In this document: positions 29,133 through 49,746 of the stretch, piece by piece
Layout: each line of letters opens with the position of its first letter
Position numbering within the stretch: position 1 is the first letter of the stretch
Notes under the pieces: generated by a model
The model's input: only the letters and a program-made list of their open reading frames with translations
Databases searched by the model: none
What the model was told of the DNA's origin: nothing
Assembly (NCBI GenBank): GCA_964433975.1
Contig: CAYSSS010000001.1
Location: 78,257-142,256, forward strand
DNA from: an uncultured Planctomycetia bacterium
Lineage (GTDB): Bacteria > Omnitrophota > Gorgyraeia > 2-01-FULL-45-10
Reading direction: 5' to 3'
Length of the DNA stretch: 64,000 nt
Made by a program: the position numbers and the translations under genes

Positions 29133-29134
29133 AG

Positions 29135-29731: not shown

Positions 29732-30738
29732 TGAATAACAGAACGCTTATTATAGCTGAGGCCGGCGTAAATCACAACGGAAGCGTAAAAACGGCCAAGA
29801 AGCTGGTGGACGCGGCGTTAAGGTCCGGCGCTGATGCCGTGAAATTCCAGACTTTCAGGGCCCAAGACCTTGTTGGCAAATTGGCTTCCAAGGCTCCTTA
29901 TCAGAATAGGACAACCTGCCGGAATGAAACACAACTTGAGATGCTGAGAAGATTAGAGTTAAATGCGGACGATCACAGAACGCTTATAGGCTACTGCAAA
30001 AAAAAGCGCATACAATTCTTATCATCTCCTTTCGATCTATTTGGCGTAGAAATGCTTGATGGCCTGGGGCTTAATATTTTCAAGATCCCATCTGGTGAAA
30101 TTACCAACTTGCCATATCTTCGTAAAATAGGGGGTCTAAACAAAAAGATAATCATGTCAACAGGTATGGCGGACTTGCGCGAGATCAATGACGCCCTGAG
30201 CGCATTAGTGAAGGCAGGAACAAAAAAAGAGAATATAACAATATTGCATTGCAACACAGAATACCCGACTCCGTCGGAAGACGTTAACCTTTTAGCCATG
30301 CTCAGCATAAAAAAACACTTTAATACAGATGTTGGTTATTCGGACCATACGCTTGGCATAGAAGTTCCCGTCGCGGCAGTAGCCTTAGGGGCAAAGATCA
30401 TAGAAAAACACTTAACGCTTGATAGGAATATGAAGGGCCCGGACCATAAAGCGTCATTAGAACCGCATGAATTTGCCATGATGGTAAGAGCCATAAGGAA
30501 CGTGGAAAAAGCGCTAGGGAGCGGGGTAAAGAGGATATCCCGCTCAGAGCTTAATAATATAAAAGTTGTCCGTAAAAGCATAGTCGCAACAAGGCCTATT
30601 AAAAAAGGAGAGATCTTTACAAGCGAAAATCTCGGCGTCAAAAGGCCGGGGACCGGATTAAATCCGATGGAATGGGACAGGGTGATAGGCGGTATAGCAA
30701 AAAAAGATTTTGTCGCGGATGAATGGATCGTATTATGA
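29731..30738 (+). CDS. NeuB-family nonulosonic acid synthase (N-acetylneuraminate / legionaminic / pseudaminic acid synthase-like).
   Basis: LIIAEAGVNHNGS N-terminus and a C-terminal SAF/antifreeze-like domain. 335 aa. Confidence 0.85.
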   Translation: MNNRTLIIAEAGVNHNGSVKTAKKLVDAALRSGADAVKFQTFRAQDLVGKLASKAPYQNRTTCRNETQLEMLRRLELNADDHRTLIGYCKKKRIQFLSSPFDLFGVEMLDGLGLNIFKIPSGEITNLPYLRKIGGLNKKIIMSTGMADLREINDALSALVKAGTKKENITILHCNTEYPTPSEDVNLLAMLSIKKHFNTDVGYSDHTLGIEVPVAAVALGAKIIEKHLTLDRNMKGPDHKASLEPHEFAMMVRAIRNVEKALGSGVKRISRSELNNIKVVRKSIVATRPIKKGEIFTSENLGVKRPGTGLNPMEWDRVIGGIAKKDFVADEWIVL

Positions 30739-31913
30739 GAAAAAAAATATGTATTATTACCGGCAGCAGGGCAGAATGGGGGCTCTTTTATCCGCTTGCG
30801 AAGGAGATAAGGCGCCAAAAAAGCGACTTCGCGCTCCAGATAATAGCTACCGGAGCGCATTTTTCTCAAAGACACGGTCTTACATATAAAGAGATATGCC
30901 GCGATGGCTTCAAAATAACCAAAGCAGTTCCATTGACGGTATCGCAGGATACAGAACAGGGTATATTAAGGGCCTTTGGCGGCGCCGTGATCAGTTTAGG
31001 TAAAGCGCTAAGGTCAGCGAGGCCCGATTTGGTCATTCTGCTGGGGGACAGGTTCGAGACATTTGCCGCGGCCGTAGCGTGCCTTTTTGAGAAGATACCC
31101 GTGGCGCACATACACGGCGGCGAATTAACGGAGGGATCCCTTGATGACATGATGAGGCATTCGGTTACTAAGCTGGCGCATATACATTTTACGTCCCATG
31201 AAGAGCATAAAAAAAGGGTCATTCAGATGGGGGAGGATCCTTCAAGGGTATTCTGCGTCGGGGCGCTTGCCCTTGATAATATCAACGGCAGAAAATTATT
31301 GAGTAAAAAAACTTTGGAAGACAAGCTGCGTTTTAAATTGGGAAAAGACACGCTAATGGTCACATTCAATCCGCCTACAGCCAGCGGAAAACTTAAGATC
31401 GAACGCCAGTTTAAAAATTTACTGGATGCTCTTGATGAATTAAAAAGCATAAAGGTGATATTTACAAAATCTAGTCCCGACATCCATTCAAAAACCATTG
31501 CGCGCCTATCAGACAGATATATATCCTCCAGGTCGAAAAAATGCATAGTGCGGTCTTCGCTGGGGCGAGAAGTTTATTTAAGCCTTTTAAAATACACGGC
31601 TGCAGTCGTGGGAAATTCATCGAGCGGCCTGATTGAAGCGCCTTCGTTGGGCGTACCTACGGTTAATATAGGCGACAGACAGAAAGGGAGATTGTGCGCG
31701 AGATCAGTGATCAATTGCGAACCTGAAAAACTATTGATATTAAAGTCCATAAGAAAAGCGCTCGGCAAGAATTTCAGAGAAGAATGCAAAAAAGTCAAAA
31801 ATCCTTATGACAAGGGAAGCGCCTCTAGATCGATAGTTTCAGTCTTAAAAAGGACACGCATAGACAGTGATTTTATAAAGAAGAGATTTCATGACCTATG
31901 GCGATACGAATAA
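30723..31913 (+). CDS. Hydrolysing UDP/GDP-N-acetylhexosamine 2-epimerase (NeuC/LegG-like).
   Basis: KICIITGSRAEWGLFYPL and HIHGGE motifs of NeuC-type 2-epimerases. Confidence 0.8.
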   Translation: MDRIMRKKICIITGSRAEWGLFYPLAKEIRRQKSDFALQIIATGAHFSQRHGLTYKEICRDGFKITKAVPLTVSQDTEQGILRAFGGAVISLGKALRSARPDLVILLGDRFETFAAAVACLFEKIPVAHIHGGELTEGSLDDMMRHSVTKLAHIHFTSHEEHKKRVIQMGEDPSRVFCVGALALDNINGRKLLSKKTLEDKLRFKLGKDTLMVTFNPPTASGKLKIERQFKNLLDALDELKSIKVIFTKSSPDIHSKTIARLSDRYISSRSKKCIVRSSLGREVYLSLLKYTAAVVGNSSSGLIEAPSLGVPTVNIGDRQKGRLCARSVINCEPEKLLILKSIRKALGKNFREECKKVKNPYDKGSASRSIVSVLKRTRIDSDFIKKRFHDLWRYE

Positions 31914-33217
31914 TACCAAGATTGGATATTAAAGGACCCAACCTCGTGAAGGGTATTCATCTTGAGGGTTTGAGGGTGTTAGGGAAGCCCGAAGATTTTG
32001 CGCGGTATTACTACGAACACGGCGCCGATGAATTGATATACATGGACGTTGTCGCCAGTCTTTACGGAAGAAACAGTGTTTTAGAAATAGTGCGGCGGGC
32101 CTCAAAAGAGATCTTCATACCTTTGACGGTCGGCGGGGGCTTAAGGACTCTCGACGACATCCGCAAGGCGTTGCACGCGGGTGCTGATAAAGTTTCTCTG
32201 AATACCGCGGCAATACAGGATCCCCAGCTCATAAGAAGGGCCGCGCGTAGGTTCGGTTCATCTACTATTGTAGTATCCATCGAGGCTATAAAAAAAGAAG
32301 AAGGTATCTATGAAGCGTACACTAATAATGGCCGCGAAGAAACGGGTGTCGATGCCCTGAATTGGGCTATGCGCGCAGCTGAACTGGGCGCCGGAGAGAT
32401 GCTCGTAACCTCTATCGACAAGGAAGGGACCGGAGAAGGTTTTGATATAGAATTGACAAGAAAGATAGCCGAATCGGTGCCGATCCCTGTCATCGCCTGC
32501 GGAGGCGCGGGGAAGATCAGCCATATACACGATGTCATACAAAAGGGAAAGGCTGACGCGGTAAGCATAGCGTCTATCCTCCACTATAAATTTATTCAGG
32601 GAGCCACAAAACATGGGGATTTTTCGGAAGAAGGGAATGTCGAATATCTTAAAAGCGGGCGCATGTTTTCAAGCATTCAGGGGGCTTCTCTTGATAGTAT
32701 TAAAAAAAATTTGATCGAAAGAAACATTTTTTGCAGGTTCGAAGAAATTGATGTTTTATGCGACTCGATGAAACTTTCAAAACCTTTTTTGGGCATATGC
32801 CTGGGAATGCAGCTTCTGATGAGCGACAGCGATGAATTTGGAATCCACAAGGGATTGAATATCATAGATGGGCACGTAAAGAGGTTTCCGGATTTTAACG
32901 ATAAGAAAGAGCGTATTAAGGTTCCCCATATAGAATGGAACAAGTTATTTTTTAACGAAAGCATTGGCGTTGAGGGGTCGATTTTGCGCAACTTTCGTAA
33001 CGGGGAATTTATGTATTTTGTGCACTCTCATTTTGTAAAACCAGATGCGGAAGATATCACTATAACATATACCGATTATTGCGGGATCCTTTATTGTTCC
33101 GGCATAAGGAAGGATAATCTCATGGCATTTCAATTTCATCCGGAAAAGAGCGGGTCGCGCGGCGTACAAATATACAAAAACTTCAAAGAGATTATATTAA
33201 AAGGGAGGGCGCAATGA
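31898..33217 (+). CDS. Fused imidazole-glycerol-phosphate-synthase-like protein. An N-terminal HisF-like cyclase (WbuZ-like) is joined to a C-terminal HisH-like glutamine amidotransferase (WbuY-like).
   Basis: The N-terminus MAIRIIPRLDIKGPNLVKGIHLEG...GADELIYMDV is HisF-like. The C-terminus has LGICLGMQLL (the GATase nucleophile Cys) and VHSHF...FQFHPEKS (His/Glu). The domain order is HisF then HisH. Confidence 0.8.
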   Translation: MAIRIIPRLDIKGPNLVKGIHLEGLRVLGKPEDFARYYYEHGADELIYMDVVASLYGRNSVLEIVRRASKEIFIPLTVGGGLRTLDDIRKALHAGADKVSLNTAAIQDPQLIRRAARRFGSSTIVVSIEAIKKEEGIYEAYTNNGREETGVDALNWAMRAAELGAGEMLVTSIDKEGTGEGFDIELTRKIAESVPIPVIACGGAGKISHIHDVIQKGKADAVSIASILHYKFIQGATKHGDFSEEGNVEYLKSGRMFSSIQGASLDSIKKNLIERNIFCRFEEIDVLCDSMKLSKPFLGICLGMQLLMSDSDEFGIHKGLNIIDGHVKRFPDFNDKKERIKVPHIEWNKLFFNESIGVEGSILRNFRNGEFMYFVHSHFVKPDAEDITITYTDYCGILYCSGIRKDNLMAFQFHPEKSGSRGVQIYKNFKEIILKGRAQ

Positions 33218-34371
33218 TTGAAGCAAAGGATCTTCTGACGATGTATAATTTGCCGTCTACGGTTAAGTTTTGTAAAAAATGCACGATGTCCAACCAAAGA
33301 CCTCGGATCACTTTTAACGAAGAAGGGGTTTGCTCAGCCTGTCAATTTTCCGATTATAAGAAATCGAAAGTCGATTGGTCCCAGAGAGAGGCCGAATTAC
33401 AGGCGCTTTTAAAGAAGCATAAAAGAGATGATGGAGGATACGAGATATTGGTCCCTTCAAGCGGCGGGAAAGACAGTGTCCGCGTTGCCCACGAATTAAA
33501 ATATAAATACGGGATGAACGTCTTGACGGTAACTTGGTCGCCGCATCTTTACACCGATATAGGGTTTAAAAACTTTCAGTCCATGATACACGTAGGCGGT
33601 TTCGATAATATTTTAGGGACTCCCAATGGAGTTATTCATCGTAAACTGACCAAATTATCGTTTGAGATTCTAGGTGAACCATTTCAGCCTTTTGTATATG
33701 GGCAGACTAATTTCCCCTTACAGATCGCGGTTAGGTACAAGATCCCGCTCATAATGTATGGTGAGAACGGAGAAGTCGAATACGGCGGAGACATGAAAAA
33801 CGCCTTTAAGCCAACTCGGGATTATAGATCTGACCACAAGAAACACTATTTTTCCGGTATTGCCCCCGAAGATTTTGTACATTTCGGTATTAAAGAATCG
33901 GATTTAGCGCCTTATAAGGCCCCGCCAAACGAAGAATTGGACGCATTAGGCGCCCAGATCCACTTTTACAGTTATTATCGTAAATGGATACCGCAGGAAA
34001 ATTTTTATTATGCCGTAGAGCATACGAACTTTATCCCCAATACCATAAGAAACGAAGGCACGTATTCCAAATATGCTTCTATTGACGATAAGATAGACGG
34101 ATTTCATTACTATCTCTCATTCATAAAATTCGGTATAGGAAGGGCTACGTCAGATTCGGCCCATGAAATCCGCGACGGGCATCTGACAAGAGAAGAGGGC
34201 GTAAAGCTCGTAAGAAAATTTGACGGGGAATTTCCACAAAAATATTTCGATGTTTTTTTGGAATATTGCGGGATTGATGAAAAATATTTTTGGGAAGCTA
34301 TAGATGCCTGGCGTTCTCCGCATATCTGGAAAAAAGAAGGCATGAAATGGATGCTGCGCTGTCAGATTTAA
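33214..34371 (+). CDS. PP-loop ATPase N-acetyl-sugar amidotransferase (WbuX/WbpG/PseA-like).
   Basis: N-terminal zinc ribbon (CKKCTMSNQRP...CSAC) and the PP-loop SGGKDS. Confidence 0.8.
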   Translation: MIEAKDLLTMYNLPSTVKFCKKCTMSNQRPRITFNEEGVCSACQFSDYKKSKVDWSQREAELQALLKKHKRDDGGYEILVPSSGGKDSVRVAHELKYKYGMNVLTVTWSPHLYTDIGFKNFQSMIHVGGFDNILGTPNGVIHRKLTKLSFEILGEPFQPFVYGQTNFPLQIAVRYKIPLIMYGENGEVEYGGDMKNAFKPTRDYRSDHKKHYFSGIAPEDFVHFGIKESDLAPYKAPPNEELDALGAQIHFYSYYRKWIPQENFYYAVEHTNFIPNTIRNEGTYSKYASIDDKIDGFHYYLSFIKFGIGRATSDSAHEIRDGHLTREEGVKLVRKFDGEFPQKYFDVFLEYCGIDEKYFWEAIDAWRSPHIWKKEGMKWMLRCQI

Positions 34372-34402
34372 TGAATCCCGGACTAAAAAGAGAGGAAGGA
34401 AT

Positions 34403-35509
34403 ATGGAGAAAAAAGACTTAATTAATGTCATCGTTAAAGAAGGCACATCTATTAAGACGGCCATGAAGCAAATGGACTCCACGGGACTCAAGATACTCTT
34501 TGTAGTCGATTCATCAGGCAGTCTCATAGGTGCGATGACTGACGGGGATTTCCGCAGGTGGATCCTGGATGGTAAAAGTTGTAACGAGGACGTACGAAAC
34601 CCGTGCAACAAAAATCCAATAACATTTTCATCTGAAGATTATGACATAGAAAAGATAAAACAGATAATGATAAAGGAGAGATTGGAATGCGTCCCCATAA
34701 TTGACGGCAACCGGACGATTACGGACGCGCTTTTCCGGGAAGATGTTTTCGGGAATAAATATAAGAAGGCAAAGAAAGCGCTGACGGTCCCAGTTGCCAT
34801 AATGGCAGGCGGAGAGGGATCCAGGCTGTCACCCTTTACAAAGATATTGCCGAAACCTCTCATACCGTTAAACGAAAAGCCTATTGCAGAAGTTATCATG
34901 GACCGTTTTGCCGAATTTGGTTGCGACGAGTTTTATCTTCTTCTGGGATATAAGGGCGTGATGATACAGTCGTATTTTGACAATGCCAAGAGTGGCCATA
35001 AGCCCATATATATGTATGAGAAGGAGCCCAGCGGGACAGCGGGCTCGCTCAAGCTGCTGTCCGACAAGCTCTCGACCGACTCTCTTTTTGTTTCCAATTG
35101 CGACATCCTGATCGAGGCCGACTATGCTAATATGTATGAATCTCACCTGAAGAATAACTGCGACATAACCATAGTAGGGGCCATGAGGCATTTTGTCATT
35201 CCTTACGGCGTTATAGATATGGGACCAGGCGGTAATATAGGTAAGTTAATCGAAAAACCGGAGTACGATTTTCTTGTGAACACAGGAATGTATATATTGA
35301 ATAAAAACACACTTTCCTATATTCCTAAAAAAGGAAAGTTTGATTTTACGGAGCTTATTAAAAAAACGCGGGAAAAAGGCGGTAAGATCAGCGTGTATCC
35401 CGTCAGTGAAAAATCATGGTTAGATATAGGTCAGATTGAATTACTGGAGGAGGCTGTTTCGGGAACGCTTGGAGAGAAATGGAGCCGCATGAAAAGAGGG
35501 GCCGCATGA
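34403..35509 (+). CDS. CBS-domain-pair plus sugar-phosphate nucleotidyltransferase (PtmE-like).
   Basis: The N-terminus has paired CBS repeats. The nucleotidyltransferase motif is VAIMAGGEGSRLSPFTKILPKPL. Confidence 0.75.
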   Translation: MEKKDLINVIVKEGTSIKTAMKQMDSTGLKILFVVDSSGSLIGAMTDGDFRRWILDGKSCNEDVRNPCNKNPITFSSEDYDIEKIKQIMIKERLECVPIIDGNRTITDALFREDVFGNKYKKAKKALTVPVAIMAGGEGSRLSPFTKILPKPLIPLNEKPIAEVIMDRFAEFGCDEFYLLLGYKGVMIQSYFDNAKSGHKPIYMYEKEPSGTAGSLKLLSDKLSTDSLFVSNCDILIEADYANMYESHLKNNCDITIVGAMRHFVIPYGVIDMGPGGNIGKLIEKPEYDFLVNTGMYILNKNTLSYIPKKGKFDFTELIKKTREKGGKISVYPVSEKSWLDIGQIELLEEAVSGTLGEKWSRMKRGAA

Positions 35510-36231
35510 TCGAGAATAAAAAAATATTGGCCCTCATACCAGCCCGCGGCGGCTCAAAAGGGATTCCCGGAAAGAACATAAAGAACTTTAATGGAAAGCC
35601 TTTGATAGCCTGGACCATAGAAGAAGCTAAAAAGAGTAAATATCTGGATAAGATAGTGGTTAGCACCGACTCCGGCGCAATAGCCGATATCGCAGTTAAA
35701 TATGGCGCCGAAGCCCCTTTCATTAGGCCCGGAGGACTGGCAAGTGATAATGCCAATATGATGGATGTCGTTCTTCACTGCATCAATTTTTTTCAAGATA
35801 CAGGCGACAACTATGACATCATTGTTCTGCTCCAGCCCACTTCTCCGCTTAGAAGGGCGGATGATATTGACGGAGCAATTGAATTTTTCATTGAAAAAAA
35901 TGCGAATGCTGTCTTAGGCGTTGTAGCGTGTGACCACCCCCCGCAACTTGCAGGGATATTGCCGAAAGACTTAAGTATGAATAATTTTGTTCAGGGAAAT
36001 AGCGGGAATAAAAACCGCCAGGAACTGAGGGCCTATTACAGAGTCAATGGCGCGCTTTATTTAGCCGACATAGATTTCATTTTGCGTAAACGGGACTGGT
36101 ATGGAGCAAAAACATTTGCCTATATCATGAAAAAAGAACGCTCAGCGGATATAGACGATCTTTTCGATTTTATGTTAGCGGAATTCGTTATGAAGGCACA
36201 GGGTCCTCTAGGTATGGGGGATGGCTTATGA
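35506..36231 (+). CDS. CMP-nonulosonic acid synthetase (acylneuraminate cytidylyltransferase family, NeuA/LegF-like).
   Basis: ILALIPARGGSKGIPGKNIK motif. The ATGA overlap with the upstream stop puts the likely start at 35506, not at the track start 35479. Confidence 0.8.
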   Translation: MIENKKILALIPARGGSKGIPGKNIKNFNGKPLIAWTIEEAKKSKYLDKIVVSTDSGAIADIAVKYGAEAPFIRPGGLASDNANMMDVVLHCINFFQDTGDNYDIIVLLQPTSPLRRADDIDGAIEFFIEKNANAVLGVVACDHPPQLAGILPKDLSMNNFVQGNSGNKNRQELRAYYRVNGALYLADIDFILRKRDWYGAKTFAYIMKKERSADIDDLFDFMLAEFVMKAQGPLGMGDGL

Positions 36232-38075
36232 TCTTGGCAGTGATATCTGACATGGAGCAATATTGGTTATTGGCGGATGCGGTCCCCGACATAAAACAAG
36301 TGCGCATCTTGTGTGATAACCCGGGAATCCATGATTTTTTGGAGGAAAAGAGAATATCATTTGATGCTTTAGATGAAGAGATATTGCGGAAAGAATGGAA
36401 TTCTATAAATATGTGGGCTTGCGAAAAGGCGCTCCTATTTGATCTTTCGGCCGGCGACAGGTCTATTCTGAATGGCATAGAGCTTAACAAAGCCTTGAAC
36501 GCCTATTTTTCCTTTTATCTGGTCAGTTTTTTGAAAAATTATCTTTTTTCGATATACGTAATAGACCGGTATAAGCCGAGCGAAATGTTTATATTCGAGA
36601 ATATCCATTGTCCGCCATTCCCCGCTTTTAATGGAAATTATTTTTTAAATAGTTTCCTGAAAGGACTAGCCCAAAAGAACGGCATCAAGGTGAACCAGCT
36701 AAAGTGCGGTACGCGCAAAGAAGAGAAGGCGTCCATGAAAGACCGCCTCAGAGTATTATTGCAGAAATCCTATGGTGGATTACCGGTTGCGGTAGATAAG
36801 AAAAAGATACTTATTGCATGCGGAGATGCAGGCCATCTGGGCCCGGTTCTTAAAAAACTTAAATATAAGGAGAAAGATATATTTGTTTATAATGATGAAT
36901 TTCGTTTTGGCCAGCTCAAATCCTGCTTAAAGGAAAAGATGCACTATGTGATTTCCGATTCTTTCCTCAAAAAAAGCCGGCAAGTAGAAGACGGCCCTGA
37001 TCACAAGAAAGAGTTTACGGACATGATAAAGCATTTATGCGGCGATAAATGGTTCACCTACGAAGGATATGATTTAAATCGCCGTATAGAAAATGCCATC
37101 CTGGATAACATAAATCCATATATCGACAATGTCCGCCAATGGACACGGATATATTCTGAAATGGTAAATAAATTGGATGTCTGTGGGGTCATCATGAACC
37201 AGGACGAGATGCCGGACAGGGCGTTCATGGCAGCCTTTTTCAAGTCCCGGAAAATCCCCGTATTCTGTATTTCACACGGTTACGGCACCGTACGGTTTTC
37301 TTTACCTATTTCAAATCGACGCTTTGACCTTTCGTATACATTTCTGCATTCCGAGCTTGAAAAACATGTCTTTACATCCAGGGGCTGGGATGAAAAAAAT
37401 ATAAGGGTCATGGGTATACCCAGGTATGACAGGCTAATGAAACTAATGGATGAAAAAAACAGGAATAAAACAAAACCGGAAAGAATGAGGATCCTGTATT
37501 CCGGTGGAATGATGCCTTATTATACTCCCTCCGTACCCTCATGGATAGGTGTATGCAAATATTCATTTGGAACTACGATGAGGAGGGATTTGAAGTTTGT
37601 AATGAAGGCATTAGAAGGCTATCCGGTTGAACTTGTAATAAAACCGCGTTATCTTGTAGATGAGGGCCCGCTGGCAGATTTTGTTATGAAGCATAAGGGC
37701 AAAAGCAATGTCACCATAGCAAAAGCTAAAACGGATTTTTTTAAACTTTTATCGGGCTGTCAGGCCATATTTTTGGCGCACTGGTCGACCGCGGTCATGG
37801 AAGGGATCATCGCACGGATTCCCACGGTCGTCTTGAATTACAACGGGATAGAAGATGATTTTCCGTTCGCCGATCACGACCTGTGCACCGTTACCCGGGA
37901 TCCGCGTGAACTCAAAGATATAATAGCGGAAATATATTCGGCTTTTATTTCCGGCAAAAAGTCCGCTCATGCACCTGTTTTTGGCAAGGACAAGGCGTTC
38001 TATACGGGCATTAATGACAGCCTGAATACTGAAAGAGTGACGGACTGTATAATGGAGACGATTGGGGCAAGATGA
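36228..38075 (+). CDS. Hypothetical protein. Possible TagF/Capsule_synth-like (CDP/CMP-activated donor) transferase. Paralog of 39550-40836.
   Basis: 615 aa with no TM helices. The C-terminal region ...RILYSGGMMPYYTPS...ELVIKPRY parallels KILYICPNLE...LLIKPHPRY in the 39550 protein. Both resemble the ...LYAPT.R ... K.HP pattern of glycerophosphotransferase/KpsS-type enzymes. Confidence 0.3.
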   Translation: MILAVISDMEQYWLLADAVPDIKQVRILCDNPGIHDFLEEKRISFDALDEEILRKEWNSINMWACEKALLFDLSAGDRSILNGIELNKALNAYFSFYLVSFLKNYLFSIYVIDRYKPSEMFIFENIHCPPFPAFNGNYFLNSFLKGLAQKNGIKVNQLKCGTRKEEKASMKDRLRVLLQKSYGGLPVAVDKKKILIACGDAGHLGPVLKKLKYKEKDIFVYNDEFRFGQLKSCLKEKMHYVISDSFLKKSRQVEDGPDHKKEFTDMIKHLCGDKWFTYEGYDLNRRIENAILDNINPYIDNVRQWTRIYSEMVNKLDVCGVIMNQDEMPDRAFMAAFFKSRKIPVFCISHGYGTVRFSLPISNRRFDLSYTFLHSELEKHVFTSRGWDEKNIRVMGIPRYDRLMKLMDEKNRNKTKPERMRILYSGGMMPYYTPSVPSWIGVCKYSFGTTMRRDLKFVMKALEGYPVELVIKPRYLVDEGPLADFVMKHKGKSNVTIAKAKTDFFKLLSGCQAIFLAHWSTAVMEGIIARIPTVVLNYNGIEDDFPFADHDLCTVTRDPRELKDIIAEIYSAFISGKKSAHAPVFGKDKAFYTGINDSLNTERVTDCIMETIGAR

Positions 38076-39553
38076 CGCATAAGAAAAGGATAATAAAAGA
38101 CAGCTTCAATCTCACCTCTGCGCGATATGCGTCGCAGTTCATAGGTTTTTTTACTTCGATAGCCATGAAGAGATTCCTCGGCCCGTTTTATACGGGAATC
38201 TGGAGCCTGTTAAATATAATATCGGATAACGCCTCTTACTTATTATTGGGTATTGGCGAAGGAGTGTGCTACAAGATTCCGTTTTTGTTGGGAGAAAAAA
38301 AAGAACAGGAGGCGGAAGAGGTAAAGGACGTAGCTTTTAATTTTGTATTCGCGGTGTCATGCCTGACAAGCCTCGCGGTGCTGGTTGCGGCCGTAATATT
38401 ACGCCACAGATATCCTGTCGAAGTCATCGTGGGTCTTTGCGCCGTTTCCCTTTATATGCTGGTAGACAGGATATGCGGTTATTACATGACGCTTTTAAGG
38501 GCCAGGAAGAATTTTTCAGTATTAAGCCTTTCCATTATATTCGACGCCGTGGTCAATCTCTGCCTTGTCATATTGCTGGTAAAGAATTTCAGGATATACG
38601 GCCTCTACGCCGCACTGATAATACTGACCGTACTCAATGTAATCTTCGTGCACCTTTTTGTGCGCTACAGGCTTTGTTTTAATTTCAAGTTTAAAGGCGC
38701 CGGCGGCCTAATCAAGATCGGTTTTCCGTTGTCCTTTTTGGGTTTCCTGCAGGGTGTGGCGCCAATCCTGGATACGATAATGATAACAAAGATGATAGGC
38801 GTGACTTTCGTGGGGTATTACAGCGTATCGGTCATGACAAAAAATTATATATCCCAGCTCTCAAGCTTCGGCACCGTGTTATATCCCTGGCTACTGGAGA
38901 CTTTTGGCAGAAATCAGAGTATTGAAGACATAAAGAAGTACGCTATTATACCTCCGAAGGTCAATGCGTACCTGCTCCCGTTGTTATTGGGCTGGATATT
39001 CTTTATCGTGCCCGTTTTGATAAAGGCGGTGTTGCCTAAGTTCATACCCGGAATCCTTGCGATACAGATCCTTCTGATCGACATGTTTTTCCGCTCATGC
39101 TACCCCCAGGCCATGCATTTTCTTATTGCGTTAAAGAAGCAGACGAAGATGATGACGATCATGATACTGTCGATCATTTTGACGGCATTATTAAATTATG
39201 CGCTGATAAAGGCGGGGTACGGGATATACGGCGTAGCTTGCGCTGCGTCGGCGGTCTCTTTTATCATGTTCTTTTTAATGCAGACATATGCGATGCGCCA
39301 TTTTGCCGGCGGGAGGGAAATCGCCTTGTTTTTCTTAGAAGTAATAGCGCCTTTTTTATATACCACCCTGTTCGTATTGTTGATAGAGAATTTTATAAGG
39401 CTTCCCAATATGTATGTCAATGCCGCGGTTAAATGCTTCACTCTGTTTATCTTCTCAATACCGCTGCTTATATATATTGATAGCCGGACACAAGTTGTGC
39501 GCCTCGTGCTTGATATGGTAAAAGGCGCCATTTTGCGAAAGGCCGATCGATGA
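38072..39553 (+). CDS. Wzx-like oligosaccharide flippase (MOP superfamily polysaccharide biosynthesis protein).
   Basis: 493 aa with about 12-14 TM helices. The N-terminal region ...SFNLTSARYASQFIGFFTSIAMKRFLGPFYTGIW is typical of Wzx/PST family members. Confidence 0.6.
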   Translation: MTHKKRIIKDSFNLTSARYASQFIGFFTSIAMKRFLGPFYTGIWSLLNIISDNASYLLLGIGEGVCYKIPFLLGEKKEQEAEEVKDVAFNFVFAVSCLTSLAVLVAAVILRHRYPVEVIVGLCAVSLYMLVDRICGYYMTLLRARKNFSVLSLSIIFDAVVNLCLVILLVKNFRIYGLYAALIILTVLNVIFVHLFVRYRLCFNFKFKGAGGLIKIGFPLSFLGFLQGVAPILDTIMITKMIGVTFVGYYSVSVMTKNYISQLSSFGTVLYPWLLETFGRNQSIEDIKKYAIIPPKVNAYLLPLLLGWIFFIVPVLIKAVLPKFIPGILAIQILLIDMFFRSCYPQAMHFLIALKKQTKMMTIMILSIILTALLNYALIKAGYGIYGVACAASAVSFIMFFLMQTYAMRHFAGGREIALFFLEVIAPFLYTTLFVLLIENFIRLPNMYVNAAVKCFTLFIFSIPLLIYIDSRTQVVRLVLDMVKGAILRKADR

Positions 39554-40836
39554 AAGATGCGCCGCGATATGATGTGATTTTTTGGGGCCATATAAGCAAT
39601 GGAATCGAGAGGTGTCTCCCCTTGATGGTTAGTTTAAAAGAGAAGGGCCTGAAGCCGCTTTTGTTTTATCAAAATTATAATTTTAGAGACGGGCTCTCCG
39701 GGTTGCAGATCAGGATCGTCCAGGCATACGGCCTTGATGTCATGGATTATTCCCATTTCCTTAAACGCGACCTACTATTAAGAATCATAACTTTTTTTGT
39801 TAATATGTTCAAGCACACGGCCAGATGCATGTTTTTTTATAACAAGTTCATAGGGCTCCGCTCAAAATTACTGCAATTGCGTATTAATGAGGGTTTTATA
39901 GGGCGGATGCTCGGCGAATTAAGGCCGAGGATCGGTTTTTTTGATAATATTTCATTGATAGAATACTGCGCGTATCCTTATGGCAGCTACTATATAAAAA
40001 AAGTATCGGATAAAATGGGTATTAAGAGTTTTGATATCTTTAACGGCATGCCCAATCATCCGCTTAAACTTGAGAGAAAGTACATAGATTTTGACAGGTA
40101 TTATGTCCCGCATGAATATGAGAGGCAAAAATACTATGCCGAGCACATCGAAAGAGACGCACCTATACTTGTATTTGGAGATCCGCGTTTTGACACAAAC
40201 TGGAAGGAAAATATCAAAAGAATTTTCTCGGAAGATATCAGGGCCGGAATAAAACGGCTCGGCATCGGGTCCAAGAGAAAAATATTGTATATATGCCCGA
40301 ACCTTGAATGCATCGGGGGTGATTCCGAAAAATACAGGAATATCGCGGATGTTGCAAGGGCGGCGAAAGCATTAGGCAATACGGCGCTGCTTATCAAGCC
40401 CCACCCCAGATACCGCTATGAAGAGAAGATAAGGCTTGTTATGAAGAAGAATAGTTTTAAAGATTTCTTTATTTTAGAAGATGACCCGCTGATATGTTAT
40501 TTGGAGCACGTGGATTTTATAGTATCGTTGGCAACGGCCGCGTTCTTTGACCTTCTGCCGGAAGGCCATAAAAAGATAGTCATATATGACAGAGGCGATT
40601 TTTGCCAATCCACGACTCTTATAAATATATTCAAGGAGGGTTTTAATTATTTTACTGGATATGACGACTTCCTGGCTTTTTTGAACGGAAAGAACGCGGC
40701 AGGAAGCGCGCATCCGGATATTGAGGGATTCTGCAGACAATGGATAGCCGGCGGAAACGGGCTTGATACCGTGGTGGAAAACATGTCAAGCGATATTTTG
40801 AACGAGTTCGATAAATTGAGAAAGGGGCAAATATGA
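39550..40836 (+). CDS. Hypothetical protein. Possible TagF/Capsule_synth-like transferase with a K-P-H-P motif. Paralog of 36228-38075.
   Basis: 428 aa, soluble. It has LLIKPHPRY and ILVFGDPRFD motifs. I cannot confirm the family assignment. Confidence 0.3.
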   Translation: MKDAPRYDVIFWGHISNGIERCLPLMVSLKEKGLKPLLFYQNYNFRDGLSGLQIRIVQAYGLDVMDYSHFLKRDLLLRIITFFVNMFKHTARCMFFYNKFIGLRSKLLQLRINEGFIGRMLGELRPRIGFFDNISLIEYCAYPYGSYYIKKVSDKMGIKSFDIFNGMPNHPLKLERKYIDFDRYYVPHEYERQKYYAEHIERDAPILVFGDPRFDTNWKENIKRIFSEDIRAGIKRLGIGSKRKILYICPNLECIGGDSEKYRNIADVARAAKALGNTALLIKPHPRYRYEEKIRLVMKKNSFKDFFILEDDPLICYLEHVDFIVSLATAAFFDLLPEGHKKIVIYDRGDFCQSTTLINIFKEGFNYFTGYDDFLAFLNGKNAAGSAHPDIEGFCRQWIAGGNGLDTVVENMSSDILNEFDKLRKGQI

Positions 40837-41594
40837 ATTTAAAAAAGAAGCTTGCGGAAGGCAGCATGACGATTGGATCATGGATTACCCTGGGCGACTA
40901 TGCTGCGACGGAGATCATGGCAAAGGCCGGTTTCGACTGGCTTGTTATAGATATGGAGCACAGCGCTATAGAGCTGGAGCGGGCGCAGAATCTCATCAGG
41001 ATAATAGAGTTAAGCGGATGCGTGCCACTGGTCCGGGTTTCTGAAAACAACGCCAACATTATTAAGAGGGTTATGGATGCGGGTTCGCACGGAGTGATTG
41101 TACCTATGGTTAACAACAGAGAGGATGCGTTACGCGCGGTAAGCGCGGTAAAATATCCGCCCAGGGGGACGAGAGGCGTAGGGCTCGGCCGCGCCCAGAA
41201 TTACGGCCTGGACTTCGAAAAATATAACAGGTGGCAGGAGAAGAGCTCCGTAGTCATCGTCCAAATAGAGCATATAGATGCTGTAAATAATCTGGAGGAG
41301 ATACTCGAAGTAGAAGGTGTCGACGGTTTCATGATCGGCCCGTACGATCTGTCCGCTTCTTTAGGGAGGCCGGGCGGGTTTGGCCACACGGACTTTAAAA
41401 AGGCGCTTGCCAAGGTCACTGCCGTTTCCAGGCGCATCGACAAAGCCCGCGGCATTCATGTTGTCCAGCCCGACAGTATTGAGGTTGATAGAAGGATAAA
41501 GGAAGGATATAATTTCATCGTATTCAGCTTTGACGCGCTTTTTTTGGGCAGCTGCTGCGCAGACAAGCTTTCAAGGGTAAGGAGAAGAAAATAA
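40833..41594 (+). CDS. HpcH/HpaI-family class II pyruvate aldolase.
   Basis: GSWITLGDYAATEIMAKAGFDWLVIDMEHSAIE...VRV..........GSHGVIVPMV...ED.......KYPPRG.RG matches the HpcH/HpaI aldolase core. 253 aa. Confidence 0.75.
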   Translation: MNLKKKLAEGSMTIGSWITLGDYAATEIMAKAGFDWLVIDMEHSAIELERAQNLIRIIELSGCVPLVRVSENNANIIKRVMDAGSHGVIVPMVNNREDALRAVSAVKYPPRGTRGVGLGRAQNYGLDFEKYNRWQEKSSVVIVQIEHIDAVNNLEEILEVEGVDGFMIGPYDLSASLGRPGGFGHTDFKKALAKVTAVSRRIDKARGIHVVQPDSIEVDRRIKEGYNFIVFSFDALFLGSCCADKLSRVRRRK

Positions 41595-43090
41595 TGAAGG
41601 GTAGCGACTTTAAGGTATTGTTTATATATCCCAATGCAATGATGGCAACGCTCGTGCCGCTCAGCATATCATCGCTTTACGCGAGTCTTAAATCGAAAGG
41701 TTTCAATACGGATATATTTGATACCACGTATTACAAGACCGAAGATATAAGCTTTGAGCAGAGGAAGGTGGACCTTCTGATGGTAAAGCCGTTCAGTTTT
41801 AATGACCAGGGTATCAAAATAAAGGAAAATGATATCTATAAGGACCTCGCCAAGAAGGTCTCCGAGTATAGGCCTGATCTTATAGCTATTACGATAGTAC
41901 AGGACATGCAGGAGCTTTCCCAGTCGTTATTGGAAAGCATAAAGGATTTTGATATACCGGTTGTGGCCGGAGGGGTATTTGTGAGCCTTTCGCCGGAAGA
42001 GGTTATCGCTGATGAGAACATAGATATTATATGTATCGGAGAAGGCGAGGAGCCTTTGACGGAGCTTTGCAAAAAGATGTCAAAGGGCGAGGACTATTCC
42101 GGGATAAAGAACCTGTGGGTTAAGCAGCAAGGCAGGCTTATAAAGAATAGCTTAAGGCCCCTCATGGATATAAACAAGCTACCATTCATAGATTATGATA
42201 TATTCGACAAGGATCGCCTTTACAGGCCGATGTTCGGCAAGGTCTACACCATGATACACGTGGAACTGGACCGGGGATGCCCATACACGTGCACCTTTTG
42301 CTGCGCTCCGGCCCTGAAAGAGGTGTACCGCAGAAATAATTGCGGACAGTATTACCGACGCAAGTCCGTTGACCGGATAATGGCTGAGATGAGGCACCTT
42401 GTAAAAAAATACAAGCCCGATTATGTAAATTTCAATTCCGAGACGTTCCTGGCGAAGCCTATGTCGGAGCTTAGGGAGTTCGCCAAAAGATATAAGAAGA
42501 TAGCTGTGCCTTTCTGGTGCCAGACGCGACCTGAAACCGTGACCGAAGAGAAGATAAAATTATTAAAAGAGATGAACTGTAATAGCTTGCAATTCGGCAT
42601 AGAGGTAGGCAACGAAGAATTCAGGAACAGGGTCCTCAACCGCAAAGACACCAACAAGCAGATGCTGAAGGCCTTCAAGCTGGTAGAGAAGTATAAAATA
42701 CCATATACCGCGAACAATATAATAGGGTTCCCGGACGAGACGAGAGACCTGATCTTTGAGACGATAGAATTTAATCGTAAGATTAATCCGCGCACGATGA
42801 ACTGTAATATAATGGCGCCGTATAAAGGCACCACGATATACAAATGTTGCATGGACAAAGGATACCTTGACAAGGACAGCAAGGTGCACCAGGTAATAGA
42901 CGGGGCGGAGCTAAATATGGATTCCATAAGTTATAAGGAATTAAAGGGGCTTCAGAGAACGTTCGCGTTATACGCAAGATCCCCTAAAACAGAATGGCCG
43001 AAGATCAAGATAGCAGAAAATTTTGACGAGGAGGGCAATCGCATGTTCGAGGAATTAAAACAGGCATATCAGAAGAAATACTTTTCATGA
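41594..43090 (+). CDS. B12-binding-domain radical SAM enzyme.
   Basis: N-terminus MKGSDFKVLFIYPNAMMATLVPLSISSLYASLKSKGF (B12-binding domain). CxxxCxxC at LDRGCPYTCTFCCA. 498 aa. Confidence 0.8.
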   Translation: MKGSDFKVLFIYPNAMMATLVPLSISSLYASLKSKGFNTDIFDTTYYKTEDISFEQRKVDLLMVKPFSFNDQGIKIKENDIYKDLAKKVSEYRPDLIAITIVQDMQELSQSLLESIKDFDIPVVAGGVFVSLSPEEVIADENIDIICIGEGEEPLTELCKKMSKGEDYSGIKNLWVKQQGRLIKNSLRPLMDINKLPFIDYDIFDKDRLYRPMFGKVYTMIHVELDRGCPYTCTFCCAPALKEVYRRNNCGQYYRRKSVDRIMAEMRHLVKKYKPDYVNFNSETFLAKPMSELREFAKRYKKIAVPFWCQTRPETVTEEKIKLLKEMNCNSLQFGIEVGNEEFRNRVLNRKDTNKQMLKAFKLVEKYKIPYTANNIIGFPDETRDLIFETIEFNRKINPRTMNCNIMAPYKGTTIYKCCMDKGYLDKDSKVHQVIDGAELNMDSISYKELKGLQRTFALYARSPKTEWPKIKIAENFDEEGNRMFEELKQAYQKKYFS

Positions 43091-43824
43091 CCATGAAATT
43101 CAACGCAGAATCTTTAAAAAACAGGCTTAAATCTTATTTGTCGGACGTGATAAAAAAGATAAGGATAATCCACAGGCTGGATTATGATAAATATCCCATA
43201 TATCTGCATGACAATATAAGGTTGGGCGCCTGCGGGAAAGAACCGGATACGGTAAAATGGATAGAAAGTTTTGATAAAAGCGATACAGCCTTTGACATAG
43301 GCGCCAACATAGGCGCGTATTCGTTGATAATGGGGAAATATGCGAAGATGGTTTTTGCCTTTGAGCCATCAGTATTTACATTCAGTACTCTGGTTAAAAA
43401 CATATATACAAATACAGCTTCGAATGTCATGCCGGTCAACATGGCGTTATCGGAACGTAAAAAAATAGGGGAATTTGCTTATTCATCAATTGATTTAGGA
43501 AGTTCCGTGCATGGTTTAGACGTGAAATTAGAAAAAGAGGCGCATAGACAAAAAATCTTATCCTATAGCATAGACGATTTTATTACCGATTTTGGCATAG
43601 AGAGCCCAAATCATATTAAACTTGATGTCGATGGCAATGAATTTGACATATTAAAAGGCGCGGCCAAAACCATCTCAACCAAGGCCTTTAAGTCTTTAAT
43701 GGTAGAAGCGGATGACAAGAGAAAAGATATGTTCGATTTTCTAGAGTCGCTAGGTCTTAAGCAGAAAGCCAAATATCATATCGGCGACGCGGGCATGTAT
43801 AACTGTCTTTTTGTAAGGGGATGA
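43087..43824 (+). CDS. FkbM-family SAM-dependent methyltransferase. Paralog of 25808-26539.
   Basis: AFDIGANIGAYSLIMGKYAK motif. The N-terminus (NAESLKNRLKSYLSDVIKKIRI) parallels the 25808 protein. Confidence 0.75.
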   Translation: MTMKFNAESLKNRLKSYLSDVIKKIRIIHRLDYDKYPIYLHDNIRLGACGKEPDTVKWIESFDKSDTAFDIGANIGAYSLIMGKYAKMVFAFEPSVFTFSTLVKNIYTNTASNVMPVNMALSERKKIGEFAYSSIDLGSSVHGLDVKLEKEAHRQKILSYSIDDFITDFGIESPNHIKLDVDGNEFDILKGAAKTISTKAFKSLMVEADDKRKDMFDFLESLGLKQKAKYHIGDAGMYNCLFVRG

Positions 43825-43828
43825 CATT

Positions 43829-44596
43829 ATGAGGATCATAGGTATTGTACCTGCAAGGATGGCATCGACGAGATTTCCGGGCAAACCGCTTGCCAAAATA
43901 CTCGGCAAGCCCATGATAGAGCATGTCTATTCGAGGAGCATGCTTTGCAAAAAATTGAACTTTGTTTACATAGCTACTCCGGATAAAGAAATACAAGACT
44001 ACTGCAAAAATAACAATATGAATGTTGTAATGACTCGCGATACCCACGAGAGGGCATCGGACAGGGCTGCCGAGGCAGTGCTCAAGATAGAAAAAAAAAG
44101 CGGAAAAAAAATAGAAATAGTCGTCATGATACAGGGCGACGAGCCGATGCTGCAGTATGAGATGATAGATAGGGTTATAAGGCCCATGATAAGCGATAGA
44201 AGTATCAACGCGGTTAATCTGACGGCGCCGCTGAAATCTAAACAGGAGCAGAACGACCCCAACCAGGTCAAAGTAGTCGTGGATAAAAAAGGTTTCGCGC
44301 TCTATTTTTCAAGAGAGCCGATCCCATCGCGGAAGAAGGGCGCCAAGGATGTGCCGATGCAAAGACAGATAGGCCTTATTGCTTTCAGAAGAGATTTTCT
44401 TATAAAGTTCAATGAACTTGCCCCAACACCGCTCGAAAAGATAGAATCAGTTGATATGCTCAGGATATTGGAGCACGGGTACAGGCTCAAGATGGTACCC
44501 GGCGCGTTTAATGCCTATGGCGTGGACACACCGCAAGACTTAAAAAAAGTGGAGCGATTGATGAAAGCTGAGGTGAGAAGCAATGCGCAAAAATAA
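43829..44596 (+). CDS. kdsB: 3-deoxy-manno-octulosonate cytidylyltransferase (CMP-Kdo synthetase family).
   Basis: MRIIGIVPARMASTRFPGKPLAKILGKPMIEHV...IQGDEPM...VKVVVDKKGFALYFSREPIP...GVDTPQDL aligns motif for motif with KdsB. Confidence 0.85.
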   Translation: MRIIGIVPARMASTRFPGKPLAKILGKPMIEHVYSRSMLCKKLNFVYIATPDKEIQDYCKNNNMNVVMTRDTHERASDRAAEAVLKIEKKSGKKIEIVVMIQGDEPMLQYEMIDRVIRPMISDRSINAVNLTAPLKSKQEQNDPNQVKVVVDKKGFALYFSREPIPSRKKGAKDVPMQRQIGLIAFRRDFLIKFNELAPTPLEKIESVDMLRILEHGYRLKMVPGAFNAYGVDTPQDLKKVERLMKAEVRSNAQK

Positions 44597-45635
44597 GATC
44601 TTACGTGTAGGTATAGCGGGATATGGAGTAGTGGGCCAGCGCCGCAGGCAATTTATCGATGCGCACCCAAATTTGCGCACGCAGGCTGTTTGTGACCAAA
44701 AGTTCGGCAAGTCGTATGTTATGCCGGACGGCGTTAAATGCTTCAACAATTACAAGGAACTGCTGGAGGAAGAGCTTGACGTGCTGTTTGTATCCCTGCC
44801 CAATTATTTAGCCGCTGATGTGACCATTGCCGGATTAGAAAAAGGATTGAATGTATTCTGCGAAAAACCTCCGGGCCGGGACGTGGCCGATATAGAGAGA
44901 GTGATAAAAGTTGAAAAGAAGCACCCTCGCCAGGTGTTAAAATACGGGTTTAATCACCGTTATCACTATTCCGTACGTGATGCTTTAAAGATGGCAAGAT
45001 CCGGAGAACTTGGGGAGATCGTTAATCTGCGCGGGGTATACGGCAAAAGCAAGATTCATCATTTTTCCGGCCCCGGAGCCTGGCGCGCGGAGAGAAAATA
45101 CGCGGGCGGAGGCATATTACTTGATCAGGGCATTCATATGGTGGATCTGATGCGGCTATTTTGCGGAGATTTCAAGGAAGTTAAAAGCTTTATATCGAAT
45201 AAACACTGGAACCATGATGTAGAGGATAATGCATATTCTATCATGTGTGATGATAAGGGCCGCATAGCCATGCTGCATTCAAGCGCGACGCAATGGCAGC
45301 ACAAGTTTAATCTGCACATAGCGCTTACTCAAGGTTATCTTGAGCTGCGCGGCATACTTTCAGGTTCTAAAAGTTACGGCGAGGAGAAGCTTGCCATAGG
45401 CAGGCGAATAGATGAGTCAGATGTGGGTAGCTTGCACGAAGAGGTTGTATCTTATTTTGAAGATGACTCTTGGCGTGATGAAATTAATGAGTTCGTGGAT
45501 ATTATAATTAACGGAGGCAGGATAAAGCACGGCGGAAGCGCCGATGCTCTTGAGACCATGAAGCTGGTCTACCGCATATATTACGCCGATCAGAAATGGC
45601 GCAAGAGCTATAATATTGTTGATCCTGATAAATAA
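44583..45635 (+). CDS. Gfo/Idh/MocA-family NAD(P)-dependent oxidoreductase.
   Basis: LRVGIAGYGVVGQRR Rossmann N-terminus, with a C-terminal alpha/beta domain typical of the family. Confidence 0.75.
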   Translation: MRKNKILRVGIAGYGVVGQRRRQFIDAHPNLRTQAVCDQKFGKSYVMPDGVKCFNNYKELLEEELDVLFVSLPNYLAADVTIAGLEKGLNVFCEKPPGRDVADIERVIKVEKKHPRQVLKYGFNHRYHYSVRDALKMARSGELGEIVNLRGVYGKSKIHHFSGPGAWRAERKYAGGGILLDQGIHMVDLMRLFCGDFKEVKSFISNKHWNHDVEDNAYSIMCDDKGRIAMLHSSATQWQHKFNLHIALTQGYLELRGILSGSKSYGEEKLAIGRRIDESDVGSLHEEVVSYFEDDSWRDEINEFVDIIINGGRIKHGGSADALETMKLVYRIYYADQKWRKSYNIVDPDK

Positions 45636-45658
45636 GCAGCAAGAACACGAGGAGAATC

Positions 45659-46270: not shown

Positions 46271-46277
46271 AGCCGGG

Positions 46278-49738: not shown

Positions 49739-49746
49739 AGCCCATC

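Follow-up and report, generated by a model that had tools for sequence, protein, structure and literature searches.

Candidate GT-B transferases for two CMP-activated sugar acids on either side of a Wzx-type flippase in an Omnitrophota glycan locus

Which enzymes use the CMP (cytidine 5'-monophosphate)-activated sugar acids that a bacterial glycan locus appears to make? The question is raised by a 64,000-nucleotide stretch of DNA from an uncultured member of the Omnitrophota (GenBank assembly GCA_964433975.1, contig CAYSSS010000001.1, positions 78,257 to 142,256 of the forward strand), which we call the window. Its glycan genes form one long locus on the + strand, and two open reading frames (ORFs) in it, ORF615 and ORF428, encode large proteins on either side of a flippase gene. 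Far less is known of the transferases for legionaminic acid (Leg), pseudaminic acid (Pse) and related acids than of how these sugars are made; a 2017 paper on Tannerella called the cognate nonulosonate transferases scarcely known (PMC5420450), and according to a 2020 paper no enzyme that transfers Leg to the cell surface had been reported (PMC7439481). Our analysis favours, with a probability of roughly 0.55, a reading in which ORF615 transfers a legionaminic-acid derivative and ORF428 a second CMP-activated acid, both as GT-B-fold glycosyltransferases of the TagF/BFO_1060/LIC12162 branch. It is the best supported reading. Two CMP-activating enzymes are encoded in the window, each near one GT-B protein, and no canonical sialyltransferase is found there. 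It sensibly extends the known TagB-like nonulosonate transferases, with ORF428 as a rare unnamed branch, and is useful rather than surprising.

Two proteins beside a flippase

The features on which the argument turns are as follows (all coordinates are those of the window; Kdo is 3-deoxy-D-manno-oct-2-ulosonic acid).

36228..38075, + strand: ORF615, LIC12162-type GT-B protein; candidate transferase for a legionaminic-acid derivative
39550..40836, + strand: ORF428, rare unnamed TagF/BFO_1060-like GT-B family; candidate transferase for a second CMP-activated (Kdo-like) acid
35479..36231, + strand: CMP-nonulosonate synthetase (CTP_transf_3; PseF/LegF-like; PF02348 E 2.4e-26, TIGR03584 PseF E 5e-52)
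38072..39553, + strand: Wzx-type flippase, a multi-pass membrane protein (PF13440 Polysacc_synt_3 E 3.7e-10, PF01943 Polysacc_synt E 7.5e-9)
27061..35509, + strand: Leg-type nonulosonate pathway (NCBIfam and Pfam matches)
40833..47968, + strand: downstream sub-cluster (profile matches; a block conserved beside ORF428-like genes in other loci)
43829..44596, + strand: KdsB-like cytidylyltransferase of that sub-cluster (NF009905, 298 bits against a cut-off of 255)

ORF615 (615 amino acids, AAs) and ORF428 (428 AAs) are both intact and start with ATG. A sequence-only reading of this DNA had given their coordinates and lengths and had placed them on either side of the flippase gene and between the CMP-nonulosonate synthetase and the KdsB region; ORF calls and Pfam matches bear out the former points and profile matches the latter. 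The synthetase, ORF615, Wzx, ORF428 and aldolase genes follow one another in this order with a four-nucleotide start/stop overlap at all four junctions, which is consistent with a single operon and with translational coupling, and the GC content across the region is unremarkable. Both proteins are predicted to be soluble, as had also been proposed; neither has a 19-residue window with a Kyte-Doolittle value of 1.6 or more, and Wzx has 98 of them.

The Leg-type pathway upstream appears complete. It encodes a LegB-like dehydratase, LegC aminotransferase (TIGR04181, 411 bits), NeuD/LegH acetyltransferase, NeuB/LegI synthase (TIGR03569, 496 bits), NeuC/LegG hydrolysing 2-epimerase (TIGR03568, 429 bits), a WbuZ-HisH fusion (TIGR03572 WbuZ, 270 bits), WbuX amidotransferase (TIGR03573, 345 bits) and a CBS-NTP_transferase protein (PtmE-like). 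The fusion of WbuZ (HisF-like) to HisH (GATase) and the WbuX gene lie inside the pathway at 31898-34371; from the two together one would expect legionaminic acid with an acetamidino group at position 5 or 7, of the type present in Legionella and Campylobacter. The synthetase at 35479-36231 is presumably the supplier of the ORF615 donor.

The downstream sub-cluster encodes an HpcH/HpaI-type aldolase, a B12-radical SAM (S-adenosylmethionine) protein, an FkbM methyltransferase, the KdsB-like cytidylyltransferase, a Gfo/Idh/MocA oxidoreductase, a GmhA-like SIS isomerase, a 2-hydroxyacid dehydrogenase and an IMPase-like phosphatase. It probably makes the second donor and looks like a route to a CMP-activated, possibly methylated 3-deoxy-ulosonic acid, with an aldolase instead of a KdsA/NeuB-type synthase. 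The acid it encodes may be a new one. The E. coli kps genes include a dedicated KdsB paralog, as does this locus. In agreement with the sequence-only reading, no match to a sialyltransferase or Capsule_synth family was found in the ~52 ORFs scanned across the window, and the window holds no canonical sialyltransferase. Two ORFs that have no Pfam family, 58941-60839 (632 AAs) and 61052-62176 (374 AAs), were considered as further relatives of ORF615 or ORF428, and are unrelated to either.

Remote homology, sequence families and fold

The two proteins had been described as paralogous, of unknown family, and alike in their C-terminal motifs. BLASTP of ORF615 against ORF428 finds nothing significant (best E=1.9), which rules out a recent duplication. 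Relatives were collected in 5.8 billion clusters (20 for ORF615 and 25 for ORF428, which gave alignments A1 and A2, respectively; source names, where the few relatives that have them give any, are Omnitrophota), and hhalign aligns A1 with A2 at a probability of 97.3% (E 2.7e-11) over 292 columns with 16% identity, laying ORF615 residues 191-512 onto ORF428 residues 7-340. As the family profiles align though BLASTP gives nothing, ORF615 and ORF428 are best described, by profile comparison, as remote homologues across the whole GT-B core that diverged anciently; the homology thus stands, and "paralogous" overstated its closeness. ORF615 carries an additional α/β N-terminal domain of ~190 AAs relative to ORF428, which is not an internal duplicate of the GT-B core (hhalign probability 0.3%). 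The motif pairs aligned by hhalign (ORF615 first) are S-H-G with H-G, G-I-P-R-Y-D with G-D-P-R-F-D, R-I-L-Y with K-I-L-Y, and I-K-P-R-Y with I-K-P-H-P-R-Y. The C-terminal motifs are therefore indeed common to both (RILY at 421-424 and VIKPRY at 470-475 in ORF615; KILY at 244-247 and LLIKPHPRY at 280-288 in ORF428), but the proposed consensus IKP-(H/R)-PRY is inexact, as ORF615 reads IKPRY without the second P-R.

In sequence the nearest families appear to be TagF-like Glyphos_transf, BFO_1060, LIC12162 and TIGR04396, and more weakly KpsC. ORF428 has no family above threshold, but ORF615, like many of its relatives, has a precomputed Pfam match to PF27859 (LIC12162), so "unknown family" holds for only one of the two. 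ORF615 also weakly matches TIGR04396, a family titled "surface carbohydrate biosynthesis protein", and positions 354-507 of the 585 in TIGR04331 (LIC12162) align with its residues 376-536; length and co-linearity fit the LIC12162 family. Among the relatives counted (18 for ORF615 and 24 for ORF428) Glyphos_transf is the commonest Pfam match, found at E<=1 in 10 of the 18 (best E 7e-9) and 14 of the 24 (best E 2e-7). BFO_1060_trans (NF046086) is matched by 9/18 (best E 7.6e-15) and 6/24 (best E 4e-5), and the NCBIfam families LIC12162 and TIGR04396 by nine ORF615 relatives each. By sequence neither protein belongs to the canonical sialyltransferase families (GT29/38/42/52/80); there are only stray sub-threshold matches to PF07388 (A-2_8-polyST; E 0.013-0.078) in one ORF615 and two ORF428 relatives.

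An exhaustive search of 1.84 billion representatives with the A2 profile found 136 proteins at E<=1e-3 and just 17 at E<=1e-30, so the ORF428 family proper is very rare. Of 34 selected remote neighbours of ORF428 (alignment A3), 11 are BFO_1060-like (2e-36), nine match Glyphos_transf, five Epimerase_2, four Capsule_synth (PF05159, also matched at E 0.032 by one of the 24 closer relatives) and four TIGR04396. In profile searches of the PDB the KpsC β-Kdo transferases (6mgb) were reached at E 6.6e-6 with A3 and 0.0097 with a tighter profile (A4), over ~77-80 residues only, with the K-V-H-P of KpsC sitting on the K-P-H-P-R-Y of ORF428 relatives; WbbB was matched weakly (E 0.04), and there were no PDB matches beyond these two. 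Searches of PDB sequences with phmmer (each protein) and hmmsearch (A1 and A2) gave chance matches only, and a relative named "CDP-glycerol glycerophosphotransferase family protein" by NCBI (P0031; CDP, cytidine diphosphate) found nothing there.

AlphaFold2 models of both proteins are confident (ORF615: predicted local distance difference test (pLDDT) 89, predicted template-modelling score (pTM) 0.90; ORF428: pLDDT 88.5, pTM 0.89, with low confidence in the loop 168-174). ORF615 is modelled as the α/β N-terminal domain (AAs 1-~190), a TagF-like core of two Rossmann domains (AAs ~191-560) and a helical tail. All of the top Foldseek matches in the PDB to both models are GT-B proteins (E 1e-9 to 1e-7, template-modelling score (TM) of the target ~0.55-0.65), among them TagF (3l7i, E 2.6e-8) for ORF615 and a polysialyltransferase-CDP complex (5wcn, E 2e-7) for ORF428. 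Both are thus predicted GT-B folds, and not the unrelated folds that would have spoken against a transferase. The TagF match belongs to a family that the sequence-only reading had named for such a comparison, but neither it nor the polysialyltransferase match is the first in rank (below). Foldseek is unable to tell ORF615 and ORF428 from UDP-GlcNAc (uridine diphosphate N-acetylglucosamine) 2-epimerases, and the sequence profiles discriminate better.

Several known systems can be set beside these proteins. BFO_1060 is a candidate nonulosonate transferase of Tannerella forsythia that has been aligned with Tanf_01245 and TFUB4_00887, TagB-domain proteins of ~445 AAs encoded directly after the CMP-Pse and CMP-Leg loci, respectively, and carrying D/E-D/E-G and HP motifs; when either gene is deleted the protein O-glycan is not completed, and the two are proposed to transfer Pse and Leg derivatives (PMC5420450). 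Both are placed here in the BFO_1060 family (NF046086). The window proteins are like them in being predicted soluble and GT-B/TagB-like, in the position of a gene right after the CMP-nonulosonate genes (ORF615 overlaps the synthetase stop codon) and, for ORF428, in the HP motif (H285-P286). They differ in that ORF615 has Arg474 at the HP histidine and is longer (615 AAs, with the extra N-terminal domain), and the acceptor in Tannerella, N-acetylmannosaminuronic acid (ManNAcA) of the protein O-glycan, is said to differ from that of the window. In Herbaspirillum seropedicae AU14040, too, neuABC is followed by genes of the LIC12162 family and TIGR04396 (PMC6679464). The precomputed PF27859 match, the length and the occurrence of the family near nonulosonate genes in other bacteria liken ORF615 to LIC12162, though its TIGR04331 score is far below the cut-off; literature searches on LIC12162 function, and on Omnitrophota with legionaminic acid, found no characterisation.

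The CMP-Kdo and CMP-Pse transferases of families GT99, GT107, GT118 and GT140 are a related retaining group (PMC12887879). The likeness of the ORF428 family to these enzymes (KpsC/KpsS of GT107, WbbB of GT99, KpsS1 of GT118 and KrkA of GT140) lies in the alignment of K-V-H-P with its K-P-H-P, is weak, and is confined to ~77 residues of the C-terminal domain. KpsC and KpsS have an aspartate nucleophile, an inserted α-helical sub-domain and a retaining double-displacement mechanism. With the GT-B bacterial sialyltransferases (GT38 polysialyltransferase, GT52 and GT80), which use CMP-sugar donors, the window proteins share the predicted fold and, in ORF428, the HP motif, but they are not members by sequence. 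With TagF and TagB (PF04464; PDB 3L7I) they share the GT-B core and the motif order H-G...G-x-P-R-x-D...I-L-Y...K-x-H-P, but each has lost one critical histidine.

Gene neighbourhoods and candidate catalytic residues

The assignment of donors to ORF615 and ORF428 comes from synteny. We compared 23 loci (~10 of them independent), with the window proteins mapped by tblastn; the A1 profile search of genome contigs had found two loci only. In all nine loci with upstream DNA an ORF615-like protein of 6xx AAs, diverged homologues included, is encoded between the nonulosonate/CMP-synthetase genes and Wzx. Homologues with 38-57% identity occupy this slot in L003, L009, L013/L019 and L015, and diverged counterparts of 627-650 AAs hold it in L004, L006, L010, L011 and L017 (hhalign probability against A1 98.3% for the L006 and 99.1% for the L011 counterpart). 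An ORF428-like gene follows Wzx, directly or with one gene between, in 10/10 loci. Of the ten distinct loci with enough downstream DNA, nine encode a second CTP_transf_3 cytidylyltransferase no more than six genes after the ORF428-like gene; five of these enzymes are KdsB-like and four belong to another type, and the L022 gene is directly adjacent. The HpcH aldolase is frequent, though not universal, beside ORF428-like genes, and 2-hydroxyacid dehydrogenase and B12-radical-SAM genes are also frequent there. In one lineage Wzx and an ORF428-like protein are joined in frame as a single protein of 925 AAs (P0046; L011 10001-12778, also L012 and L020); it is found on 10 contigs, and the sources shown include ENA and JGI samples. 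Thus ORF615, coupled to the CMP-nonulosonate synthetase, is assigned the legionaminic-acid derivative, and ORF428, coupled or fused to Wzx with a second cytidylyltransferase nearby, is assigned the second CMP-activated acid. The sub-cluster itself varies between loci, with a cyclase (PF04199), a haloacid dehalogenase (HAD) phosphatase, an aminotransferase or a SPASM radical-SAM enzyme swapped in, and L011 has sulfotransferase and dTDP (deoxythymidine diphosphate)-sugar genes instead of the aldolase/KdsB-like block.

The conserved residues that could take part in catalysis are these.

37275..37277, + strand: ORF615 His350 in the SHG motif, invariant in 18/18 family members
37413..37430, + strand: ORF615 G-I-P-R-Y-D (396-401); G396, P398 and D401 invariant; aligns with GDPRFD of ORF428
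37641..37652, + strand: ORF615 K-P-R-Y (472-475); K/R-P-H in 15/18 relatives, with Arg474 replacing the HP-motif histidine
40042..40047, + strand: ORF428 Asn165-Gly166; H-G in 18/24 relatives, Asn in ORF428 itself and the three relatives nearest to it
40177..40194, + strand: ORF428 G-D-P-R-F-D (210-215), six positions all invariant or nearly so
40396..40410, + strand: ORF428 K-P-H-P-R (283-287), the HP motif; His285 in 23/24; aligns with K-V-H-P of KpsC

In addition, acidic residues after a strand of the N-terminal Rossmann domain are nearly invariant (D326-E327 in ORF615, D132 in ORF428), without the glycine of the D/E-D/E-G motif. In TagF-like enzymes the histidine of the H-G region is the proposed base and that of K-x-H-P contacts the donor phosphate; Schertzer in 2005 and Lovering in 2010 are said to have found both conserved TagF histidines critical for activity. 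We take the proposed TagF base to be H444, with ORF615 H350 as its presumed equivalent, and the KPHP histidine to correspond to TagF H584, a phosphate-binding or leaving-group residue homologous to the HP motif of sialyltransferases and KpsC; this mapping follows motif order and not a displayed alignment. The sequence-only reading had suggested that the KPHP histidine might be a catalytic base as in TagF, which by this mapping is probably wrong; it is more likely a phosphate or leaving-group ligand by analogy, a role that Arg474 could also fill. If the mapping holds, ORF428, with Asn165 at the place of the base histidine, must have another base or nucleophile, for which D132 and D211/D215 are candidates. 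Natural variants that do without one or the other "essential" TagF histidine should be useful for dissecting the mechanism.

From the fold, the remote homology, the neighbouring families and the synteny we infer donors, acceptors, stereochemistry and catalytic residues as follows. Members of the TagF/BFO_1060/LIC12162 branch, among which we place ORF615 and ORF428, use cytidine-nucleotide donors. Both enzymes would act before Wzx flips their substrate, a lipid-linked oligosaccharide at the cytoplasmic side of the membrane. ORF615 would most likely use the CMP ester of a legionaminic-acid derivative (probably the 5-acetamidino form) to extend the glycan, and ORF428 would most likely add an acid that the downstream KdsB-like enzyme has activated, either Kdo or a modified 3-deoxy-ulosonic acid. 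By analogy the C-terminal Rossmann domain would bind CMP with the K-P-H/R motif, at the phosphate, and with an acidic residue that is conserved (E525 in ORF615, D334 in ORF428), and the N-terminal domain would supply the base or nucleophile (D326 and H350 in ORF615, D132 in ORF428), as judged from TagF, the GT-B sialyltransferases and KpsC. A role of either protein as a polymerase (poly-Leg, as in Legionella) is not favoured in our interpretation, as the pathway is Wzx-dependent and a Wzy_C-like gene is present at 2018-3373.

A fuller scenario, unlikely to be right in every part, would make the ORF428 family a dedicated transferase for an undescribed CMP-activated sugar acid. This acid would come from a pyruvate-aldolase (HpcH-type) route rather than from a PEP (phosphoenolpyruvate)-dependent KdsA/NeuB-type synthase, would be C- and O-methylated by the B12-radical-SAM and FkbM enzymes, and would be activated by the KdsB-like cytidylyltransferase. 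The transferase would act in a physical complex with Wzx, as the fusion in one lineage leads us to propose, and by a catalytic apparatus unlike that of TagF in which the base histidine is dispensable, as Asn165 suggests. Whether or not all of this holds, the locus offers two candidate transferases with donor predictions, a conserved transferase-Wzx-transferase module and a natural flippase-transferase fusion, and it extends the idea of TagB-like nonulosonate transferases from Bacteroidota to uncultured bacteria of the Omnitrophota/Planctomycetota type.

Alternative readings and other genes of the window

A number of observations weigh against the assignment of ORF615 and ORF428 as CMP-sugar-acid transferases. 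The sequence-only reading had proposed such a role, and the GT-B models, the profile links to Glyphos_transf, BFO_1060 and KpsC, and the synteny all speak for it, but in the Pfam-A and NCBIfam searches, as run, both window proteins stay below every curated cut-off: for ORF615 the TIGR04331 score is 18.8 bits (cut-off 225) and PF04464 gives no match, for ORF428 the PF04464 score is 17.2 bits (threshold 22.1), and neither protein matches BFO_1060_trans at E<=0.1. Each lacks one of the two TagF-type histidines (R474 in ORF615, N165 in ORF428). UDP-GlcNAc 2-epimerases lead the Foldseek lists of both models, ahead of transferases (E ~1e-9, TM ~0.6, 10-14% identity), and Epimerase_2 (PF02350) is matched by 5/18 ORF615 relatives (best E 1.3e-7). 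ORF615 homologues with 35% identity occur in Ca. Scalindua (L001/L014) and in L008 with no nonulosonate genes nearby, so the family is not tied exclusively to nonulosonates, and this clade, it is suggested, uses a different activated donor. In L011, the Wzx-fusion locus, the next 10 kb downstream encode no second cytidylyltransferase. Finally, a caution comes from Bacillus subtilis, in which the TagB-domain protein SpsB is not needed for Leg transfer (PMC7439481).

One rival reading is that the two proteins are TagF/TagB-type phosphotransferases, which move a phospho-alcohol or phospho-sugar acid from a CDP-activated donor and make phosphodiester (teichoic-acid-like) links. Glyphos_transf is the top Pfam match in both families and TagF is among the Foldseek matches, and the ORF615 relatives of Ca. 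Scalindua and L008 lie beside NTP_transferase/IspD-like and CDP-OH_P_transf genes. In L010 (6981-7736) and L011 (9261-10004) the ORF615-like gene is also separated from Wzx by a gene for a protein of ~250 AAs that weakly resembles CDP-alcohol phosphatidyltransferases; the window has no such gene. We nevertheless think this improbable: no TagD/TarI/TarJ-type genes for CDP-glycerol or CDP-ribitol supply are present among the ~52 window ORFs scanned, the adjoining cytidylyltransferases are CTP_transf_3 enzymes of the KdsB/NeuA/PseF type, whose products are CMP-ulosonates rather than CDP-alcohols, the missing histidines count here too, and among curated families the best E-value belongs to BFO_1060, that of the nonulosonate transferases. 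The conserved block beside the Scalindua and L008 genes (L001/L014 10001-19473, L008 9568-20661) also encodes a methyltransferase or sulfatase, an APS (adenosine 5'-phosphosulfate)-kinase-like protein, a protein of unknown type of 407-419 AAs, a PEP-utilizer protein of ~800 AAs and a GATase, and the CDP-OH_P_transf gene is in L001.

There is a similarly small chance that ORF615 and ORF428 have one nonulosonate in common, which they would add, for instance, to different acceptors, in different linkages, or as priming and extending enzymes, and that the KdsB-like product goes instead to another glycosyltransferase, one of the GT2 or GT4 type encoded at 48791-52684. The triad of ORF615-like, Wzx and ORF428-like genes always follows nonulosonate genes, the fusion locus L011 shows one CTP_transf_3 gene only within its flanks, and ORF428 relatives also touch BFO_1060_trans. 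Against it, a second cytidylyltransferase accompanies ORF428-like genes almost everywhere and once adjoins one directly, ORF428-like genes without a second pathway are seen in L011 only, and in L003 and L008 ORF615-like genes have no ORF428-like partner. ORF615 and ORF428 could instead be ordinary GT-B glycosyltransferases (GT4/GT28-like) that add common hexoses from nucleoside diphosphate (NDP)-sugars, in which case the motif resemblance would be generic to the fold; six of the 18 ORF615 relatives match Glycos_transf_1 weakly, and MurG, WaaG and HepE stand in the Foldseek lists. This is quite improbable, as the K-P-H-P and G-x-P-R-x-D motifs and the KpsC/BFO_1060/Glyphos_transf profile matches are specific to the cytidine-nucleotide branch, GT2 and GT4 genes are already present separately in the locus, and two CMP-activated sugars would be left without an enzyme.

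Very improbable, last, is that they are not transferases at all but GT-B-fold nucleotide-sugar 2-epimerases or hydrolases (NeuC/PseG-like) of the sugar-acid pathways: the Foldseek ranking and the Epimerase_2 matches above, weak PseG matches in three ORF615 relatives and a NeuC match in one, and a precomputed Epimerase_2 match of the L010 counterpart point that way, but ORF615 and ORF428 themselves do not match PF02350, the Leg pathway of the window already has its strong NeuC/LegG, Glyphos_transf and BFO_1060 matches exceed the epimerase matches in number and score, and a transferase working close to the membrane would fit the Wzx fusion better than a soluble enzyme of the pathway would.

Other parts of the locus deserve brief mention. 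Four B12-binding radical-SAM genes are present in this one glycan locus (7488-8795, 21230-22804, 23525-25576 and 41594-43090), interleaved with many genes for GT-C-type membrane glycosyltransferases (PMT_2/YfhO/GT87; 5752-7491, 12099-21205 and 55738-57306), and the scattered radical-SAM genes hint at heavily C-methylated glycans. An RtcB RNA-ligase homologue (278 bits) is encoded at 52677-54179, an odd passenger amid glycosyltransferase genes and a thymidylate-kinase-like gene. The carbamoyltransferase ORF at 4605-5765 has a TTG start and matches the Carbam_trans_N profile from position 190 onward only; its N-terminal part may be missing, the gene may be split, or the start may be wrongly called.

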